Below are positions 6,053 to 21,512 of a DNA stretch of 38,297 nucleotides, in pieces (position 1 is the stretch's first letter; every line of letters begins with the position of its first letter). The DNA is taken from sequence record NC_002730.1. One strand, 5' to 3'. The translations under genes and the position numbers were made by a program. Source of the DNA: Enterobacteria phage HK620. The notes beneath the pieces are model-generated. The model was not told the origin of the DNA. It ran no database searches and saw only the letters and a list, made by a program, of their open reading frames with translations.

Positions 6053-6185
6053 TTTTGGGAACTCCTGGCTGATTAAGTACGTCGATGAGTCGTTTCCATC
6101 CGTCACGTAATTTACGGGTGATTCGTTCAAGTAAAGATTCGGAAGGGCAGCCAGCAACAGGCCACCCTGCAATGGCATATTGCAT
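6045..6185 (-). CDS. cIII: CIII, FtsH protease inhibitor
   Basis: MQYAIAGWPVAGCPSESLLERITRKLRDGWKRLIDVLNQPGVPKNG is near-identical to lambda CIII as I recall it. Confidence 0.75.
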   Translation of the reverse strand: MQYAIAGWPVAGCPSESLLERITRKLRDGWKRLIDVLNQPGVPKNG

Positions 6186-6334
6186 GGTGTGCTCCTTATT
6201 TATACATAACGGAAAACGCCTCTCGTGAAGCGTTATTGGTATGCATATAAAAAGGCCCTCACATTGGAGGGCAAAGAAGATTTCCAATAATCAGAACAAG
6301 TCGGCTCCTGTTTAGTTACGAGCGACATTGCTCC

Positions 6335-14712: not shown

Positions 14713-14897
14713 ACGCCACAATTCAAACGATACCAGAGCTTCTTATCCAGACACGAGGCAATCAGACCGAAGTGGCGAGGATGCTTTCCTGCGCAAGAGG
14801 AACGGTGCTCAAGTACAACCGAGATAGCAAAGGCGAGCGTCACGTAATAGTTAACGGCGTCCTGATGGTCAAACAGGGCAAGAGGGGAAGACGATGA
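14709..14897 (+). CDS. ninH: NinH-like protein
   Basis: 62 aa; ...GNQTEVARMLSCARGTVLKY... resembles lambda NinH. Confidence 0.75.
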   Translation: MNATIQTIPELLIQTRGNQTEVARMLSCARGTVLKYNRDSKGERHVIVNGVLMVKQGKRGRR

Positions 14898-15517
14898 GAC
14901 TCGAAAGCGTAGCTAAATTTCATTCGCCAAAAAGCCCGATGATGAGCGACTCACCACGGGCCACGGCTTCTGACTCTCTTTCCGGTACTGATGTGATGGC
15001 TGCTATGGGGATGGCGCAATCACAAGCCGGATTTGGAATGGCTGCATTCTGTGGTAAGCACGAACTCAGCCAGAACGACAAACAAAAGGCTATCAACTAT
15101 CTGATGCAATTTGCACACAAGGTATCGGGGAAATACCGTGGTGTGGCAAAGCTCGAAGGAAATACTAAGGCAAAGGTGCTGCAAGTGCTCGCAACATTCG
15201 CTTATGCGGATTATTGCCGTAGTGCCGCGACGCCGGGCGCAAGATGCAGAGATTGTCACGGTACTGGCCGGGCCGTTGATATTGCCAAAACAGAATGGTG
15301 GGGGAGAGTTGTCGAGAAAGAGTGCGGAAGATGCAAAGGCGTCGGCTATTCAAGGATGCCAGCAAGCGCAGCATATCGCGCTGTAACGATGCTAATCCCA
15401 AACCTTACTCAACCCACCTGGTCACGCACTGTTAAGCCGCTGTATGACGCTCTGGTGGTGCAATGCCACAAAGAAGAGTCAATCGCAGACAACATTTTGA
15501 GTGCGGTCACACGTTAG
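14894..15517 (+). CDS. Q: late-gene antiterminator Q (lambda-Q type)
   Basis: 207 aa, essentially the lambda Q sequence as I recall it, including the zinc-finger region CRDCHGTGR...CGRCKGVG. Confidence 0.92.
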   Translation: MRLESVAKFHSPKSPMMSDSPRATASDSLSGTDVMAAMGMAQSQAGFGMAAFCGKHELSQNDKQKAINYLMQFAHKVSGKYRGVAKLEGNTKAKVLQVLATFAYADYCRSAATPGARCRDCHGTGRAVDIAKTEWWGRVVEKECGRCKGVGYSRMPASAAYRAVTMLIPNLTQPTWSRTVKPLYDALVVQCHKEESIADNILSAVTR

Positions 15518-15559
15518 CGGCATGATTGCCACGGATGGCAACATCTTTACGGCATGATA

Positions 15560-15588
15560 TTGACTTTTTGAATAAAGTTGGGTAAATT
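15560..15588 (+). promoter_or_regulatory. late promoter pR-prime (TTGACT-N17-TAAATT) with overlapping Q-utilisation region
   Basis: Hexamers read directly; lambda-like context downstream of Q. Confidence 0.6.
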
Positions 15589-15622
15589 TGACCCAACGAT
15601 GGATAAATGCACTCGTTAAATA

Positions 15623-15653
15623 AAGCCCTGAGTTAATAGCTCGGGGCTTTTTC
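15623..15653 (+). terminator. rho-independent terminator (tR-prime-like) shortly downstream of the late promoter
   Basis: AAGCCCTGAG-loop-CTCGGGGCTT followed by TTTT. Confidence 0.6.
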
Positions 15654-16538
15654 ATTTCTGCAATCCGGTCAGGACTTTCGAGTTAATGCGTGCTGCACGA
15701 CACGTTGACACTCATACGCGAGAGCCCTGAGCCAGATTGAAGGCTATCAGGTAAGAGCATATCGACGCACTGATAGGGCTGGATTGGAAGATCATTCAGA
15801 GACCCGGCAGACAGATGTGTTCTTTCCGATGGTTTTCGTAAGCGACTTTGCGGTTTTTTAGAAACTGATCACAAAGATAAATGCAAACGAAGAAATGTAT
15901 CTGGCCGTAGCTTAACCGCTAAACACCAGTGAGGTATTCCAGTTCCTCATCAACGAATCTGGCGCACTGGCCCGGTGTGATTAATAATGGGCACACAACA
16001 GGTAAGAGCATTAAAGAACTGGCAAAGAGCTTAACGGTCTGCGAAAGCATTTCTTAGTGGCACAACTGGCCGGTACAACTGAGTGCTCTTTCCGGTGTGG
16101 TGAATGCGCAGGCTGATGCGCGCAGGAGAGCTTCGGAAGAACAAGGTGCCTGTATACAAGCCGGAGATCAGCGCCGGCCACCACAGCCAAATCCACCCAG
16201 AGCAAAACCGTTGTTCATCCTTACCATTCCCTCAGTATTTTGGGCTACAACCCTCAGCCCATTTTTTAAAGCGTACTTCCACCAAGAACCAGACCTAACC
16301 AACTCATTGCTGACACTCTGTGGATACGGTTGTCTAGTGCGCTTTAAAAAAGAAAACCCAGCATCAATGGCTGGGCTTCGTGATATGAGCGGCATGTATT
16401 GTTGGCGCAATCCACGCCTGATTTGCTCATGAATGCGGTCACGAACAAACCCGTTACAAATCAACCGTAACCCGGATTTGTTCAAGCGACCATATCCATA
16501 ATTCCTAATTTGAACAGATCCCCTTCTGGGGGTAAGAC

Positions 16539-16862
16539 ATGAAGATGCCAGAAAAAAATGACCTGTTAGCCGCCATTCTCGCGGCAAAGGAACAAGGCAT
16601 CGGGGCAATCCTTGCGTTTGCAATGGCGTACCTTCGCGGCAGATATAATGGCGGTGCGTTTACAAAAACAGTAATCGACGCAACGATGTGCGCCATTATC
16701 GCCTGGTTCATTCGTGACCTTCTCGACTTCGCCGGACTAAGTAGCAATCTCGCTTATATAACGAGCGTGTTTATCGGCTACATCGGTACTGACTCGATTG
16801 GTTCGCTTATCAAACGCTTCGCTGCTAAAAAAGCCGGAGTAGAAGATGGTGGAAATCAATAA
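16539..16862 (+). CDS. S: class I holin (lambda S type) with dual start motif
   Basis: 107 aa, [22 protein letters not shown]..., near-identical to lambda S as recalled. Confidence 0.92.
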
Positions 16863-17322
16863 TCAACGCAAGGCGTTCCTCGATATGCTGGCGTGGTCAG
16901 AGGGAACAGATAATGGACGTCAGAAAACCAGAAATCATGGTTATGACGTCATTGTTGGCGGAGAGCTATTCACTGATTACTCCGATCACCCTCGCAAACT
17001 TGTCACGCTAAACCCCAAACTCAAATCAACAGCCGCCGGACGTTACCAGCTTCTTTCCCGTTGGTGGGATGCATACCGTAAGCAGCTTGGACTGAAAGAC
17101 TTCTCTCCGAAAAGCCAGGACGCTGTGGCGCTGCAGCAGATTAAGGAGCGTGGCGCTTTGCCGATGATTGATCGCGGTGATATCCGTCAGGCAATCGACC
17201 GTTGCAGCAATATCTGGGCTTCATTGCCGGGAGCTGGTTATGGTCAGTTCGAGCATAAGGCTGACAGCCTGATTGCAAAATTCAAAGAAGCGGGCGGAAC
17301 GGTCAGAGAGATTGAGGTATGA
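16846..17322 (+). CDS. R: endolysin (lambda R-type lytic transglycosylase)
   Basis: 158 aa, [26 protein letters not shown]... Confidence 0.92.
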
Positions 17323-17786
17323 GCAGGGTCACCGCGATTATCTCCGCTCTGGTTATCTGCATCATCGTTTGCCTGTCATGGGCTGTTAATCATTACCGTG
17401 ATAACGCCATTACCTACAAAGAGCAGCGCGACAAAAACACCAGAGAACTGAAGCTGGCGAACGCCACCATTACTGACATGCAACAGCGCCAGCTTGATGC
17501 TGATGCACTCGATGCTAAATACACGAAGGAGTTAGCTGATGCGAAAGCTGAAAATGATGCTCTTCGGCGCAAGCTTGATAATGGTGGCCGGGTGCTCGTC
17601 AAAGGAAAATGCCCTGTGCCAGCCTCAGCCAAAACCTCCAGCGCCTCCGGCATGGGCAATGATGCCACCGTCGAACTCTCTCCAGTTGCTGGACGAAACG
17701 TTCTCGGTATCCGGGACGGAATTATCCGCGACCAAACAGCACTGAGAACGCTTCAGGAATACATCAGGACGCAATGCCTTCAATGA
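17319..17786 (+). CDS. Rz: Rz spanin (inner-membrane subunit)
   Basis: 155 aa with N-terminal TM segment and coiled coil; overlaps the R stop. Confidence 0.85.
17539..17745 (+). CDS. Rz1: Rz1 spanin (outer-membrane lipoprotein), nested in the +1 frame of Rz
   Basis: 68-aa ORF with lipobox (LIMVAGC) and proline-rich mature part, wholly inside Rz. Confidence 0.8.
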
Positions 17787-17960
17787 TAGCGATAATTTTA
17801 CTCATCATCCTTCACATCTGGCTCTGTAGACAGGGTGGTGATCACTTCTGGAGTGAATCCAGATTAAACATCTCATTGCTGATGCTTGAAGTTGAGCATC
17901 TGGCGCGCGGTAAGGGGCTGCGTTGAGATAAGAGCCAGTTCATTACAAATACCAGGATTT

Positions 17961-17985
17961 AGCCTCGCATTCGCGGGGCTTTTTA
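17961..17985 (+). terminator. rho-independent terminator downstream of the lysis cassette
   Basis: GC hairpin CCTCGC-ATTC-GCGGGG followed by CTTTTTAT. Confidence 0.5.
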
Positions 17986-18128
17986 TATCTGAATTTCACA
18001 GCGCATCTCACGCGCATATTAACGAGAGCCTTTCAGTAAGCGAGCCTGAGAAATGCCGTTATAGGTGGCGACCTCTCTCGGGCGGCTTTTCTGTGAGACA
18101 GGCTCACTTTCTAAAAGGTAAAGACGCT

Positions 18129-18626
18129 ATGAAAGCAATCACGCTTTTTAATACACCGATCCGTGTTGATGAATCAGGAATGATCTGCCTCACTGATATG
18201 TGGAAAGCCAGTGGTAAAAGTGAATCTGAATCTCCGTACCACTACCTGCGAAACAAGCAGACCAAAGAGTTCTTAGCCGAGCTGGAGAAAAACCACGAAT
18301 CTGTGGTTTTTACTGAGCGCGGTGTACACGGTGGAACATATGGCGGGAAGTTTGTTGCTTACGATTATGCGGCTTGGTTAAACCCCGGGTTCAAGTACGC
18401 GGCCTATAAAGTCCTCGATGACTACTTCACTGGAGAACTTCAGCATCGCAACAGCTTAAGTGCGCAGCTCAACATGAAATGTCATGAGTTTGACCAGAAG
18501 AAAGACATGGCGAGCTTCTGCGGACAAGGGCTGGCAGCATGGCGCTATACGAAGCCAGTGTTGGTCGCTGAGATTAACTCCCTGGCTAACCAGCTGCAGA
18601 TTACGATCCCCGGGCTTCCGGGATGA
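18129..18626 (+). CDS. KilA-N domain protein
   Basis: ATG at 18129 with ribosome-binding site; MKAITLFNTPIRVDESGMICLTDMWKASG... fits the KilA-N pattern; the track's upstream extension lacks support. Confidence 0.65.
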   Translation: MKAITLFNTPIRVDESGMICLTDMWKASGKSESESPYHYLRNKQTKEFLAELEKNHESVVFTERGVHGGTYGGKFVAYDYAAWLNPGFKYAAYKVLDDYFTGELQHRNSLSAQLNMKCHEFDQKKDMASFCGQGLAAWRYTKPVLVAEINSLANQLQITIPGLPG

Positions 18627-18880
18627 GTGATCGTGTCATTGAATGCGCCTCCAGAGCGGGGCGCGACTTCTCAGAGTTCATGAAAGGCGAGAAGGGCATG
18701 ATGGAAGCATTGGCCTCGGTGGATGAGTTTGGCGAGCAGCTGCGCCTCAACGGCTGTGTCAATCATCACTTTGTTAGCTACATGATGCGGAACTCGATCA
18801 TGCAGGCATTCATGGACATGGCAAAAGCCGAGAGGAAAGAAGAGCGCCGGCGTAAGCGAGCGGAAGCAAAAGCGAAGTAG
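18623..18880 (+). CDS. hypothetical protein with basic C-terminus
   Basis: 85-aa ORF overlapping the KilA-N gene stop. Confidence 0.5.
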   Translation: MSDRVIECASRAGRDFSEFMKGEKGMMEALASVDEFGEQLRLNGCVNHHFVSYMMRNSIMQAFMDMAKAERKEERRRKRAEAKAK

Positions 18881-19233
18881 CCATTACAAAGCCCATCTAC
18901 AGGTGGGCTTGATAATGAAACCGTGATTTACATCCCCACAATCCGGGTATGTAAAAGCTGGATCATGCGAGAACGGATTTAACTCAATCTGTGCGCCACC
19001 AGTTAACGGCAGTACCGCGAAACAACCCAAGCCAGTAAGTGGGGAAATAACACTGGCAGCCACTGAAAGATGAACCTCCAGCCTTATGGCAAAAAAGATT
19101 CTTTGTGGTGGCGGACTGATGGAAAGACATCGGTTATTGCAGAGGCCATTCAATGAGTGGTCTCGACAATGGCTTATACCCTACACGGGATAACTTAAAT
19201 GATATCCCTTTTAACGGATAAACGGAGCCAACA

Positions 19234-19476
19234 ATGGCAGAGATTATTCCCATGACTGAAGAACAGAAATTCCAGTTAGAGATTTACAAACTGGTCATGA
19301 ACCAGAACGCAGCCGCAGAAGAAGCATTTCAGTTCATTGGCACTGACGAGCTGAAGCTTGAGCTATTCAAAATTCACTTCCAGTCAGGTGGCGCTAATTC
19401 AGATATCACGACCCGAACCATCGAAGCGGTGCGTAAATCTAAGGAAGCGTTAGACCTGTTCACTACCGGAGCATGA
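19234..19476 (+). CDS. hypothetical protein
   Basis: 80-aa ORF with ribosome-binding site, upstream of the terminase genes. Confidence 0.5.
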   Translation: MAEIIPMTEEQKFQLEIYKLVMNQNAAAEEAFQFIGTDELKLELFKIHFQSGGANSDITTRTIEAVRKSKEALDLFTTGA

Positions 19477-19477
19477 T

Positions 19478-19657
19478 GTGAGCCGCGTAATCAATTTGGG
19501 TAAGGAGAAGAAATTCCCAATTACTCAAGAGCTATACGAGCGGCTGGAAAGCGTCATCCATGATTACGATGGTGAAATCAGTTTATGCGAGGCGATTGGT
19601 ACACTCGAATTGCTGAAGCAGTCACTGATTGAAGGCGCGAAAGAGTCCTCAACCTGA
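19478..19657 (+). CDS. hypothetical small protein (GTG start)
   Basis: 59 aa; GGAG seven nt upstream of GTG; not in the ORF track. Confidence 0.35.
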   Translation: MSRVINLGKEKKFPITQELYERLESVIHDYDGEISLCEAIGTLELLKQSLIEGAKESST

Positions 19658-19680
19658 AATGACAATTAAGTGAGATGAAT

Positions 19681-20103
19681 ATGGCGACTGAACCAAAAGC
19701 TGGTCGCCCCTCTGATTATATGCCGGAGGTGGCTGACGATATCTGCTCGTTGCTTTCTTCTGGCGAAAGTTTGCTGAAAGTATGCAAGCGCCCAGGTATG
19801 CCGGATAAGTCCACTGTTTTCCGCTGGTTGGCAAAGCATGAGGATTTTCGCGACAAGTACGCGAAGGCAACTGAGGCGCGAGCTGATTCTATTTTCGAAG
19901 AGATATTCGAAATTGCTGACAATGCGATTCCAGATGCTGCTGAGGTGGCAAAGGCAAGACTTCGCGTTGATACCCGCAAATGGGCGCTGGCCCGAATGAA
20001 TCCCCGTAAGTATGGCGACAAGGTAACTAACGAGCTTGTCGGTAAGGACGGCGGCGCAATCCAGATTGAAACATCACCGATGAGCACTCTATTCGGAAAA
20101 TGA
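19681..20103 (+). CDS. terminase small subunit (Sf6 gp1-like)
   Basis: 140 aa from MATEPKAGRPSDYMPEV...; immediately upstream of, and overlapping, the large terminase. Confidence 0.85.
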   Translation: MATEPKAGRPSDYMPEVADDICSLLSSGESLLKVCKRPGMPDKSTVFRWLAKHEDFRDKYAKATEARADSIFEEIFEIADNAIPDAAEVAKARLRVDTRKWALARMNPRKYGDKVTNELVGKDGGAIQIETSPMSTLFGK

Positions 20104-21512
20104 CCTCGATTAATCCTATCTTTGAACCGTTCATTGAGGCGCATCGCTACAAAGTCGCCAAAGGCGGTCGAGGTAGCGGTAAGTCATGGGCAATTGCGAG
20201 GCTGCTTGTTGAAGCGGCGCGTCGGCAGCCTGTGCGCATACTTTGCGCTCGTGAGCTGCAAAACAGTATCAGCGATTCGGTAATTCGGTTGCTTGAAGAC
20301 ACCATAGAGCGGGAAGGGTATTCGGCTGAGTTTGAAATTCAGCGTTCAATGATTCGTCATCTCGGAACGAATGCTGAGTTCATGTTCTACGGCATCAAAA
20401 ACAACCCGACGAAGATTAAATCGCTCGAAGGCATTGATATCTGCTGGGTGGAGGAAGCGGAAGCGGTAACGAAGGAATCATGGGATATCCTGATACCAAC
20501 CATCCGCAAGCCATTTTCCGAAATATGGGTGAGCTTTAACCCGAAAAACATCCTCGACGATACCTATCAGCGATTCGTCGTAAATCCTCCAGATGATATT
20601 TGCCTGCTGACGGTGAACTACACCGACAACCCGCACTTTCCTGAAGTTCTCCGTCTGGAGATGGAAGAGTGTAAACGCAGAAATCCGACCCTGTATCGTC
20701 ACATCTGGCTTGGTGAGCCAGTGAGCGCAAGTGATATGGCAATCATCAAACGTGAATGGCTTGAAGCCGCAACCGATGCGCACAAGAAACTAGGATGGAA
20801 AGCGAAAGGCGCTGTTGTTTCTGCACATGACCCGTCAGATACAGGGCCAGATGCTAAAGGTTATGCATCGCGTCACGGTTCGGTAGTTAAGCGCATTGCC
20901 GAAGGTCTGCTGATGGACATCAATGAAGGTGCTGACTGGGCAACTTCGCTGGCTATTGAAGACGGCGCTGACCACTATTTGTGGGATGGTGATGGTGTTG
21001 GTGCGGGGCTGCGCAGACAGACAACGGAAGCGTTCTCAGGTAAGAAAATCACCGCCACGATGTTCAAGGGCAGCGAATCGCCATTCGATGAAGATGCTCC
21101 GTATCAGGCCGGAGCATGGGCTGATGAAGTCGTACAGGGTGACAACGTTCGCACTATTGGTGATGTGTTCCGCAATAAGCGAGCGCAATTCTATTACGCG
21201 CTGGCTGACAGGCTTTATCTGACATATCGGGCGGTTGTCCACGGTGAGTATGCAGACCCCGACGACATGCTGAGTTTCGACAAAGAAGCGATAGGCGAGA
21301 ATATTCTGGAGAAGCTGTTTGCAGAACTGACGCAGATTCAGCGCAAATTCAATAACAACGGGAAGCTGGAGCTAATGACTAAGGTCGAAATGAAGCAGAA
21401 GCTCGGTATTCCATCTCCTAACCTGGCTGATGCGCTGATGATGTGTATGCATTGCCCGGCATTGGCCCGCGAAGAAACAGAAATATACGTTCCCTCATCC
21501 TCCGGTTGGTAA
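20100..21512 (+). CDS. terminase large subunit (ATPase/nuclease)
   Basis: 470 aa; Walker A KGGRGSGKS near the N-terminus. Confidence 0.95.
   Translation: MTSINPIFEPFIEAHRYKVAKGGRGSGKSWAIARLLVEAARRQPVRILCARELQNSISDSVIRLLEDTIEREGYSAEFEIQRSMIRHLGTNAEFMFYGIKNNPTKIKSLEGIDICWVEEAEAVTKESWDILIPTIRKPFSEIWVSFNPKNILDDTYQRFVVNPPDDICLLTVNYTDNPHFPEVLRLEMEECKRRNPTLYRHIWLGEPVSASDMAIIKREWLEAATDAHKKLGWKAKGAVVSAHDPSDTGPDAKGYASRHGSVVKRIAEGLLMDINEGADWATSLAIEDGADHYLWDGDGVGAGLRRQTTEAFSGKKITATMFKGSESPFDEDAPYQAGAWADEVVQGDNVRTIGDVFRNKRAQFYYALADRLYLTYRAVVHGEYADPDDMLSFDKEAIGENILEKLFAELTQIQRKFNNNGKLELMTKVEMKQKLGIPSPNLADALMMCMHCPALAREETEIYVPSSSGW

Follow-up and report, generated by a model that had tools for sequence, protein, structure and literature searches.

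The rha genes of phages P22 and phi80 are late-operon genes that are harmful to lytic growth when IHF is lacking (PMC4936722). In P22, the interval between Rz and gene 3 is annotated as rha, orf25, orf80 and orf59c, and it also houses pid, an experimentally studied moron encoded on the opposite strand between orf25 and orf80 (PMC3573128; PMC8835761). In the T-even phages, homing-endonuclease genes borne on polycistronic transcripts are controlled by terminators and by hairpins that sequester the ribosome-binding site (PMC2988022). Here we analyse the counterpart of the P22 segment in Enterobacteria phage HK620 (NC_002730.1), whose 38,297 nucleotides (nt) are referred to below as the window. 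The cluster lying between the lysis cassette and terS in this phage is the 'rha region', a non-essential mosaic segment of a single late operon, and as a gene cluster it is already known, its annotation being transferable from P22 and Sf6. It contains a portable cassette of about 950 base pairs (bp; 17961-18911) made of a terminator-like hairpin (T1), a structured RNA leader, a KilA-N gene, a gene for a protein of 85 amino acids (aa) and a second hairpin. The terminator-leader element is, as far as Rfam and a limited literature search show, undescribed, and represents a new family of a known regulatory kind. We propose, with a probability of roughly 0.6, that this rha-region cassette relies on Q-dependent late transcription and that its leader, by burying the Shine-Dalgarno (SD) sequence, limits translation of the KilA-N gene. 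The components of the cassette are the following.

17961-17985, + strand: intrinsic-terminator-like hairpin T1, AGCCUCGC-AUUC-GCGGGGCU plus a U5 run
18001-18128, + strand: structured leader of about 130 nt
18001-18015, + strand: hairpin S1 of the leader, GCGC-AUCUCAC-GCGC
18029-18118, + strand: long leader hairpin, with 18029-18048 as the anti-SD arm, base-paired to the 3' arm (18099-18118)
18049-18052 with 18089-18092, + strand: helix P3, atop the long hairpin
18055-18086, + strand: helices P4-P5, atop the long hairpin
18129-18626, + strand: KilA-N + ORF11CD3 gene, 165 aa, with Pfam and PHROG matches
18623-18880, + strand: 85-aa gene (phrog_875), whose start overlaps the KilA-N stop (ATGA)
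18882-18898 and 18901-18917, + strand: arms of hairpin 2 (the 'palindrome'), an inverted repeat with a 9-bp stem and tetraloop at 18888-18910

The anti-SD arm of the long hairpin begins with CCUUU and the 3' arm ends in the SD itself, AAAGG (18114-18118); the loop of S1, UCUCAC (18006-18011), is the exact complement of a six-nt 3' bulge, GUGAGA (18093-18098). About 200 related loci were compared overall: 87 were fetched via DUF2560, the family of the P22 orf80 product, and the known proteins were mapped on them by tblastn, and 119 further loci came from a degenerate pattern scan of IMG/VR. The leader falls into diverged sequence classes, at least four to six in number, that share 55-70% identity and precede quite different genes, and minimum-free-energy folds computed independently returned the same architecture in six of seven diverged classes. 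With 14 representatives, RNAalifold identified six pairs carrying compensatory double changes, and 95.9% of the cells of alignment A3 were paired, versus 40-50% in slid controls. Loop-bulge pairing of at least 5 bp was present in 73 of 74 unique elements (mean 47% and maximum 61% in 1000 permutations) and takes four covarying versions, UCUCAC/GUGAGA, UCACAC/GUGUGA, UCGCAC/GUGCGA and CCGCA/UGCGG. All 29 arm-pair variants form a duplex of 17-21 bp that includes CCUUU:AAAGG and is kept by compensatory changes, with a mean of -22.1 kcal/mol for cognate arms versus -14.5 kcal/mol for non-cognate arms taken from diverged classes.

A covariance model of the element matches the window once, at 170 bits (E 2.5e-34), and gives 84 matches in 79 loci. 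The alignment built with it, A6, holds 79 distinct sequences and includes the pseudoknot; it replaced a MAFFT alignment of 36 leaders, A4, which was too mis-registered for column counts. In A6, 90.5% of the cells pair (36-52% in slid controls), 29 pairs are changed on both sides (6-10 in controls) and the covariation score is 0.280 versus at most 0.074, the observed values being reached in none of 500 shuffles; these figures are generous, as A6 is fitted to the model, which inflates pairing, and its sequences are related by descent. By helix, pairing amounts to 94% for the helix between the S1 loop and the bulge, 100% for P3 and 95.9% for P4, compensatory changes occurring in both P3 and P4. 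The analyses blind to the structure (RNAalifold, the A3 count, the loop-bulge pairing and the arm duplexes) agree with A6. The frequent G-U pairs of the fold would become A-C mismatches on the opposite strand, which assigns the fold to the + strand, that is, to the sense of the late mRNA. Behind the leader, the start ATG always lies 31-35 nt past a CUGUG motif. Positions 17961-18134 of the window gave no match in Rfam 15 at E up to 1, the leaders of P22, Sf101, PhiR49_1, Dewey and FSL SP-016 gave none in Rfam either, and a limited literature search for orf80, DUF2560 or a KilA-associated RNA motif returned nothing relevant.

For the bases of the SD, the computed probability of being unpaired amounts to 0.001-0.013 at 37 C and does not exceed 0.04 at 45 C; for the SD of the DUF2560 gene, the computed values are 0.7-0.98. 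We considered and rejected an RNA thermometer, the SD being still at least 96% paired at 45 C. From this computed pairing we infer that the leader acts as a strong translational block and not as a thermometer.

Leader and terminator both lie in the 342 bp that separate the Rz stop from the KilA-N ATG, an interval that a preliminary description, made from the letters of the sequence, had presented as some 340 bp of non-coding DNA. This holds insofar as the gap has no conserved protein gene, but it contains a conserved terminator and a covarying RNA leader, and the latter had been overlooked. The terminator announced downstream of Rz was recovered as a hairpin (17961-17980) followed by TTTTT, 175 nt past the Rz stop, and the gap itself, the KilA-N gene, the 85-aa gene, the palindrome and the open reading frames (ORFs) of 80 and 59 aa were likewise all found where they had been placed. 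The T1 stem comprises 8 bp, 6 of them GC pairs. Among the first 97 sequences examined, T1 was encountered in 59 places, loci without cargo included; over 79 sequences pairing in its hairpin reaches 98%, and each of the 7 pairs shows compensatory changes. A breakpoint recurs at 17961, and T1 forms the 5' edge of the cassette. In one locus (L083, 2374-2420) the terminator and the SD stretch (AAAGGTAAAGACG) are kept, the intervening leader is lost and an unrelated 95-aa gene lies behind. The gap begins within a further reading frame.

17774-17926, + strand: 50-aa ORF, homologue of Sf6 gene 65, overlapping the Rz stop

This ORF is listed as a hypothetical protein in Sf6 (gene 65), Sf101, Kapi1 and RefSeq Escherichia coli. 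We rejected it as a gene: among 36 unique alleles, the variable sites are spread as 11, 10 and 13 over the three codon positions, codon changes are synonymous in 12 cases and non-synonymous in 29, and two alleles carry internal stops. On this pattern it is probably not a real gene.

The transcriptional setting of the cassette is given by the following features.

14894-15517: Q-like ORF
15560-15588: PR'-like promoter, directly after Q, matching the P22 annotation
15622-15650: terminator after the PR'-like promoter, matching the P22 annotation
17319-17786: Rz (Phage_lysis, E 5e-29)
19675-20103: terS (Sf6_terminase, Sf6 type)

In the window, holin, endolysin and Rz precede terS, terL and portal, and the succession of Q, PR'-like promoter, lysis genes and terS therefore places the cluster inside the late operon. 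In BTP1, RNA-seq has shown the late operon to be one polycistronic unit (PMC7067206). A consensus scan of 15400-20200 detected no promoter-like site on the + strand beyond the PR'-like promoter, so that the cluster is most likely expressed from the Q-dependent late transcript.

These observations bear on the possibility, raised in the preliminary description, that the cluster is expressed independently and occupies a common site of morons and anti-defence genes. A moron or anti-defence island of this kind would own a promoter active in the lysogen and would protect the host or the phage. The slot itself lends some colour to the idea: in relatives it holds P22 pid, a Tad2-like gene in Kapi1 and Huey, and gp49/66-type proteins, which the annotation of phage Huey calls anti-CRISPR together with the Tad2-like protein. 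The cassette moreover shows presence/absence polymorphism of the sort expected from a moron, being absent from two of the compared loci (L036 and L077), from Sf6 and from Kapi1 and replaced elsewhere by other genes. The sole match to a defence library concerns the KilA-N protein, at the level of the domain, with the PADLOC candidate PDC-S22 (E 6.8e-9), and BstA of phage BTP1, described by Owen and colleagues in 2021, is reportedly a KilA-N defence protein. However, the genes of the window are embedded in the late operon and co-oriented with it, a terminator stands directly upstream, the SD is sequestered and the + strand lacks a promoter-like site in the scan. The four proteins of the cluster have no match in NCBIfam or in the anti-defence families of Pfam, and a 165-aa protein with an ORF11CD3 C-terminus is not built like BstA. 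We therefore regard an independently expressed island as distinctly unlikely; the moron attribution is sound for the slot and fails for the four proteins found here, the proposal of independent expression is not borne out, and the cluster should not be flagged as an anti-defence island.

In the reading that we prefer, T1 would stop RNA polymerase lacking the Q modification, so that the cassette would be transcribed only within the antiterminated late transcript. On this very abundant mRNA the long hairpin would bury the SD and few ribosomes would start, the fold would be locked by tertiary pairing of the bulge with the S1 loop, and a potentially harmful DNA-binding protein would be made only late and in small amounts. 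Alternatively, the KilA-N protein might be made only once the hairpin has been opened or cut, and RNase III cleavage or a trans-acting factor might bring such relief. The 85-aa protein would be produced through translational coupling and probably acts with the KilA-N protein. With a terminator in front and no promoter found, such a double lock is the simplest reading; it fits the report on rha (PMC4936722) and parallels the T-even hairpins (PMC2988022). It could explain how sometimes harmful DNA-binding genes come to be carried in the most heavily transcribed operon, and the leader offers, via defined compensatory mutants, a concrete handle on the 40-year-old Rha/IHF phenotype.

Several points weigh against the double lock. 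A consensus scan could miss a weak or non-sigma-70 promoter in 15600-20200, and the P22 pid promoter, with its poor -10 box, exemplifies what such a scan could miss (PMC8835761). Read-through of T1 by Q-modified polymerase is assumed by analogy, and the toxicity of the KilA-N protein of the window is likewise assumed from that of Rha. A constitutively closed hairpin would leave the retention of the gene unexplained. Locus L083 retains the terminator and the SD without the leader, and cargo such as the Tad2-like gene and gp66 is leaderless; the leader is therefore dispensable for the slot. The generous nature of the A6 figures belongs to the same side of the balance.

A wider proposal is put forward only tentatively. 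The terminator-leader element may be an undescribed and widespread cis-regulatory RNA switch of enterobacterial temperate phages that gates cassettes of Bro-network and nuclease genes, its pseudoknot and SD helix being opened or cut on a specific signal. Candidates for this signal are RNase III, a late protein of the phage, and a host factor connected with the old observation that Rha does harm only without IHF.

Behind the leader were found genes for Phage_pRha + ORF11CD3, KilA-N (with ORF11CD3 or P63C), P22_AR_N + ORF11CD3, AntA, two kinds of HNH_3 and T5orf172/MUG113 proteins, an assortment that corresponds to the Bro network together with homing-endonuclease-type nucleases. Nearly all interchangeable cassettes share the leader architecture, and in the late-operon slots examined the leader precedes almost every gene of the Rha, KilA-N, Ant or HNH type; the covariance model can be used to locate such cassettes and to fix their start codons. 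The leader type of the window occurs in 155 phage records, 73 of which are Stx2a, and is also present in Klebsiella, Enterobacter, Hafnia and Citrobacter phages. A close variant is carried by 955 of 5,426 complete E. coli genomes (~18%), the listed records being nearly unannotated beneath it, and Salmonella phages are among its other carriers.

The leader is not found in loci devoid of cargo, and elsewhere it is present between structural genes. This is difficult to reconcile with a role in RNA processing or stability, according to which the leader would be a putative RNase III site splitting the lysis mRNA from the packaging mRNA, cleavage freeing the SD and activating translation: the element tracks particular cargo genes and not the boundary between lysis and packaging. 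Helices H_SD, P3 and P4 do stack to about 30 bp interrupted by internal loops, which is the size typical of phage RNase III sites, T1 and hairpin 2 could shield the new 3' ends, and the lambda N leader offers a precedent, its cleavage by RNase III freeing an SD. We nevertheless consider a processing element of this kind unlikely.

The first gene of the cassette encodes a KilA-N domain protein, as had been predicted. The KilA-N domain (PF04383) scores 58.5 bits, for a cut-off of 23.8, over residues 7-101 and is followed at residues 109-161 by an ORF11CD3 domain (PF10549; 50.5 bits, cut-off 25), which is also found in the Rha and P22_AR_N proteins that occupy the same slot in related loci. Phage_pRha (PF09669) has no match in the 165-aa protein, and the Rha-like phrog_518 matches only its C-terminal part (residues 105-163); the protein sits at the rha position, yet it is not a Rha protein. 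Its translated C-terminal sequence visibly resembles those of P22 and Sf101 Rha. With the same position and the same leader family in front, the KilA-N gene is an allele of the P22 rha slot, and its product would be a DNA-binding protein of the Bro network. A start at TTG 17886, which would give a 246-aa ORF and figures in the ORF list, was rejected in favour of ATG 18129 because both the homologues and the SD place the start there.

The second gene was described as coding for a basic protein of 85 aa; its isoelectric point of 9.1 agrees, though the body of the protein is acidic and the basic character resides in a very basic tail of 20 aa. Its 138 homologues, from Enterobacterales, have a near-constant length of ~83-87 aa. 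The T5orf172/MUG113 proteins that fill the same slot in other phages carry at their N-terminus a domain homologous to it (E 3e-11, with 28% identity over 67 aa), of which the 85-aa protein is a stand-alone copy, and its AlphaFold2 model displays a confident three-helix fold with a basic tail (pLDDT 92.8). A fold search with this model returned only generic helical bundles at E above 1, and a sequence search of the PDB with the KilA-N and 85-aa proteins returned nothing.

The 85-aa protein accompanies the KilA-N allele in all 12 loci that have the whole allele, and the two genes overlap at ATGA. Together with the tight repression of the first gene suggested by the computed SD pairing, and with the harm done by Rha relatives when mis-expressed, this association could point to a toxin-antitoxin or abortive-infection pair in which the small basic protein would neutralise a DNA-binding toxin; P1 KilA, too, is harmful when mis-expressed. 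However, no toxin-antitoxin or defence-system family is matched, genes at this late-operon position are not expressed in the lysogen, the 85-aa protein is homologous to the N-termini of nucleases and not to known antitoxins, and other alleles in the slot have no partner gene. Such a pair is highly improbable in our view.

The limits of the cassette emerge from its relatives. Homology with Salmonella phage FSL SP-016 spans exactly the stretch from terminator to hairpin (17962-18911), and thereby defines the cassette of about 950 bp. Hairpin 2, at which this homology stops (18911), is the 3' edge; it follows several different cargo genes, its 9-bp stem is conserved via G-U and compensatory changes, and no U run follows it on the + strand. 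Recurrent breakpoints in the megablast alignments lie at 17961, 18124, 18911, ~19052, ~19222-19243 and 19475. The same cassette is located after Rz in a lambda-like phage with a Nu1/A terminase as well as in P22-like and Salmonella phages. The gene upstream of the leader is Rz in 75 of 118 loci and otherwise an endolysin, structural or Q-like gene, which indicates that the cassette moves within late operons.

Between Rz and DUF2560 the content is combinatorial: nothing, several Rha alleles, the KilA-N gene with its 85-aa partner, a second KilA-N type, HNH genes and others. Across the ~200 loci the cargo of the slot comprises Rha, KilA-N, P22_AR_N, AntA, HNH, T5orf172 and Tad2-like genes, or none, and alternatives include the Tad2-like Kapi1_043 (PF11195), Sf6 gp66 (PF13876) or combinations. 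Cargo matching PF11195 (Tad2, Thoeris anti-defence 2) was observed at 1809-2327 of locus L002 (phage Kapi1) and 934-1434 of L216 (phage Huey). Free assortment is seen between the 5 clusters of leaders and the 16 clusters of genes, and the KilA-N allele of the window is found behind two leader types; this points to recombination at the leader-gene junction, in agreement with the breakpoint at 18124. The leader marks the junction where these genes shuffle between phages.

Such a position raises the question of whether the hairpins and the leader are boundary or linker sequences acting at the level of DNA, which would supply homology or folded single-stranded DNA for cassette exchange, any function in RNA being incidental. 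The breakpoints coincide with T1 (17961), with the stretch preceding the ATG (18124) and with hairpin 2 (18911), any leader type may be joined to different gene types, tandem cassettes exist, and Sf6 is annotated with 'boundary sequences'. Yet simple homology needs no compensatory changes, the many G-U pairs would be A-C mismatches on the other strand, the SD is integral to the helix with a fixed spacing to the ATG, and no recombinase is associated with the element. We hold a purely DNA-level role to be very unlikely.

In some contigs a pair of leader-gene cassettes stands in tandem, or the late region holds a second and weaker copy elsewhere: L129 (2744-2909 and 3242-3384), L114 (2311-2476 and 2630-2794), L124, L186, L119 and L003 (4505-4646). 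In the second copy of L129 the top of the hairpin is shortened and the P3 helix has changed from AGAA/UUCU to GGCA/UGCC.

Downstream of hairpin 2, the cassette is followed by these elements.

18997-19233, + strand: conserved non-coding backbone upstream of DUF2560, shared at 80-99% identity with 198 phage records, most of which leave it unannotated
19234-19476, + strand: DUF2560 gene (P22 orf80), 80 aa, PF10834, 147.7 bits over profile positions 1-72 of 72
19478-19657, + strand: 59-aa gene (P22 orf59c), GTG start 1 nt past the DUF2560 stop, phrog_3546, E 4.4e-43

The second gap of the cluster (18881-19233, 353 bp) includes a 60-bp piece, ~18931-18991, that behaves as an indel. The diversity of the backbone is 0.021, versus 0.078 at the third codon positions of DUF2560, and its core (19030-19194) is ~3.7-fold less diverse than the neighbouring synonymous sites. 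As to a possible RNA structure in 18997-19233, the backbone folds well (z-score -3.9), but the changes are one-sided only and double covariation is absent from this interval. The small ORFs present in 19070-19193 (one of 28 aa, one of 35 aa and one like P22 orf25) were discarded on account of frameshifts and losses of start codons in relatives. An 89-aa ORF on the - strand (18884-19153) was considered as a pid-like moron and discarded as well; it has no family match, and pid sits in an insertion that is missing here. The insertion points of the backbone lie at ~19131-19155 and 19192: genes of the gp66 type enter at ~19131 and pid at ~19192. The backbone is interrupted by the pid locus in P22 and by gene 66 in Sf6, and the window has the uninterrupted form of the P22 pid insertion site.

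The DUF2560 and orf59c products are two small acidic backbone proteins encoded before terS. The former is 99% identical to P22 orf80, and its nucleotide diversity by codon position (0.011, 0.004 and 0.078) is that of a backbone gene under strong purifying selection. The latter, 97% identical to P22 orf59c, is present in some loci only and absent from many. The term 'accessory cluster' used in the preliminary description is thus appropriate for the slot, which is non-core and mosaic, and inappropriate for the 80-aa gene, for which 79 of the 80 retained IMG/VR loci encode an identical protein. The comparison across related phages that it had suggested shows DUF2560 as a backbone gene, orf59c as present in some loci, and the KilA-N and 85-aa genes as interchangeable with other cargo.

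The window as a whole is a complete P22/Sf6-like (Lederbergvirus-type) prophage, whose other features of note are listed here.

50-1243, - strand: integrase-sized ORF
6140-6198, - strand: lambda cIII thermoregulator (RF01804, full-length match, 88.5 bits)

Between the late terminator and holin lie 900 bp (15640-16545) without tRNA genes, unlike the situation in Sf6, Kapi1 and S107. This stretch is 100% identical to phage HK633, and ~370 bp of it (15813-16185) have unannotated counterparts, at 82-88% identity, in E. coli phage vB_EcoS_swi2 and in Klebsiella phages such as ZCKP8. A structured RNA at 15805-16190 was considered and dropped, the Rfam matches being weak and transfer-messenger-RNA-like (E 0.2-0.4) and the fold z-score -0.03.

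Among known systems, the closest is the P22 segment rha-orf25-pid-orf80-orf59c (NC_002371, 39575-41437), which occupies the same position between Rz and terS and shares with the window orf80 (99% aa identity), orf59c (97%), the conserved non-coding backbone, the terminator/leader family and the ORF11CD3 C-terminus of the first gene. Unlike P22, the window has a KilA-N and not a Phage_pRha N-terminus, an extra 85-aa gene, no pid and a terS of the Sf6 type. BstA invites comparison by its N-terminal KilA-N domain, its presence in a P22-like prophage and the weak PADLOC domain match of the protein of the window. As reportedly described by Owen and colleagues in 2021, BstA is about twice as long, has another C-terminal domain, is encoded beside the immunity region and shows expression from the prophage, whereas the protein of the window has 165 aa with ORF11CD3 and is encoded in the late operon behind a terminator.

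With regard to the mode of control, the nearest parallel is provided by the T-even hairpins of I-TevI, I-TevII, I-TevIII, segB and mobE (PMC2988022): here as there, a stable hairpin buries the SD of an optional and potentially harmful gene on a long polycistronic phage transcript with a terminator upstream, and some of the cargo consists of HNH or GIY-YIG-like nucleases. The differences are that the consensus scan found no internal late promoter that would free the SD, that the leader possesses a covarying loop-bulge pseudoknot, and that the hosts of the element are lambdoid temperate phages with a cargo consisting mostly of Bro-network proteins. As in SD-sequestering repressor leaders, a stable helix (arms 18029-18048 and 18099-18118) covers the SD. 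In the lambda cIII thermoregulator (RF01804), likewise an mRNA leader of a phage, alternative pairing governs access to the ribosome-binding site; the leader described here shares neither sequence nor model similarity with it and is far too stable to melt. Finally, the lambdoid boundary sequences annotated as bsq features in Sf6 and HK620 are, like the leader, short conserved non-coding stretches at the recombination junctions of modules. The leader differs from them by a conserved, covarying secondary structure tied to the SD, which points to a function in RNA as well.

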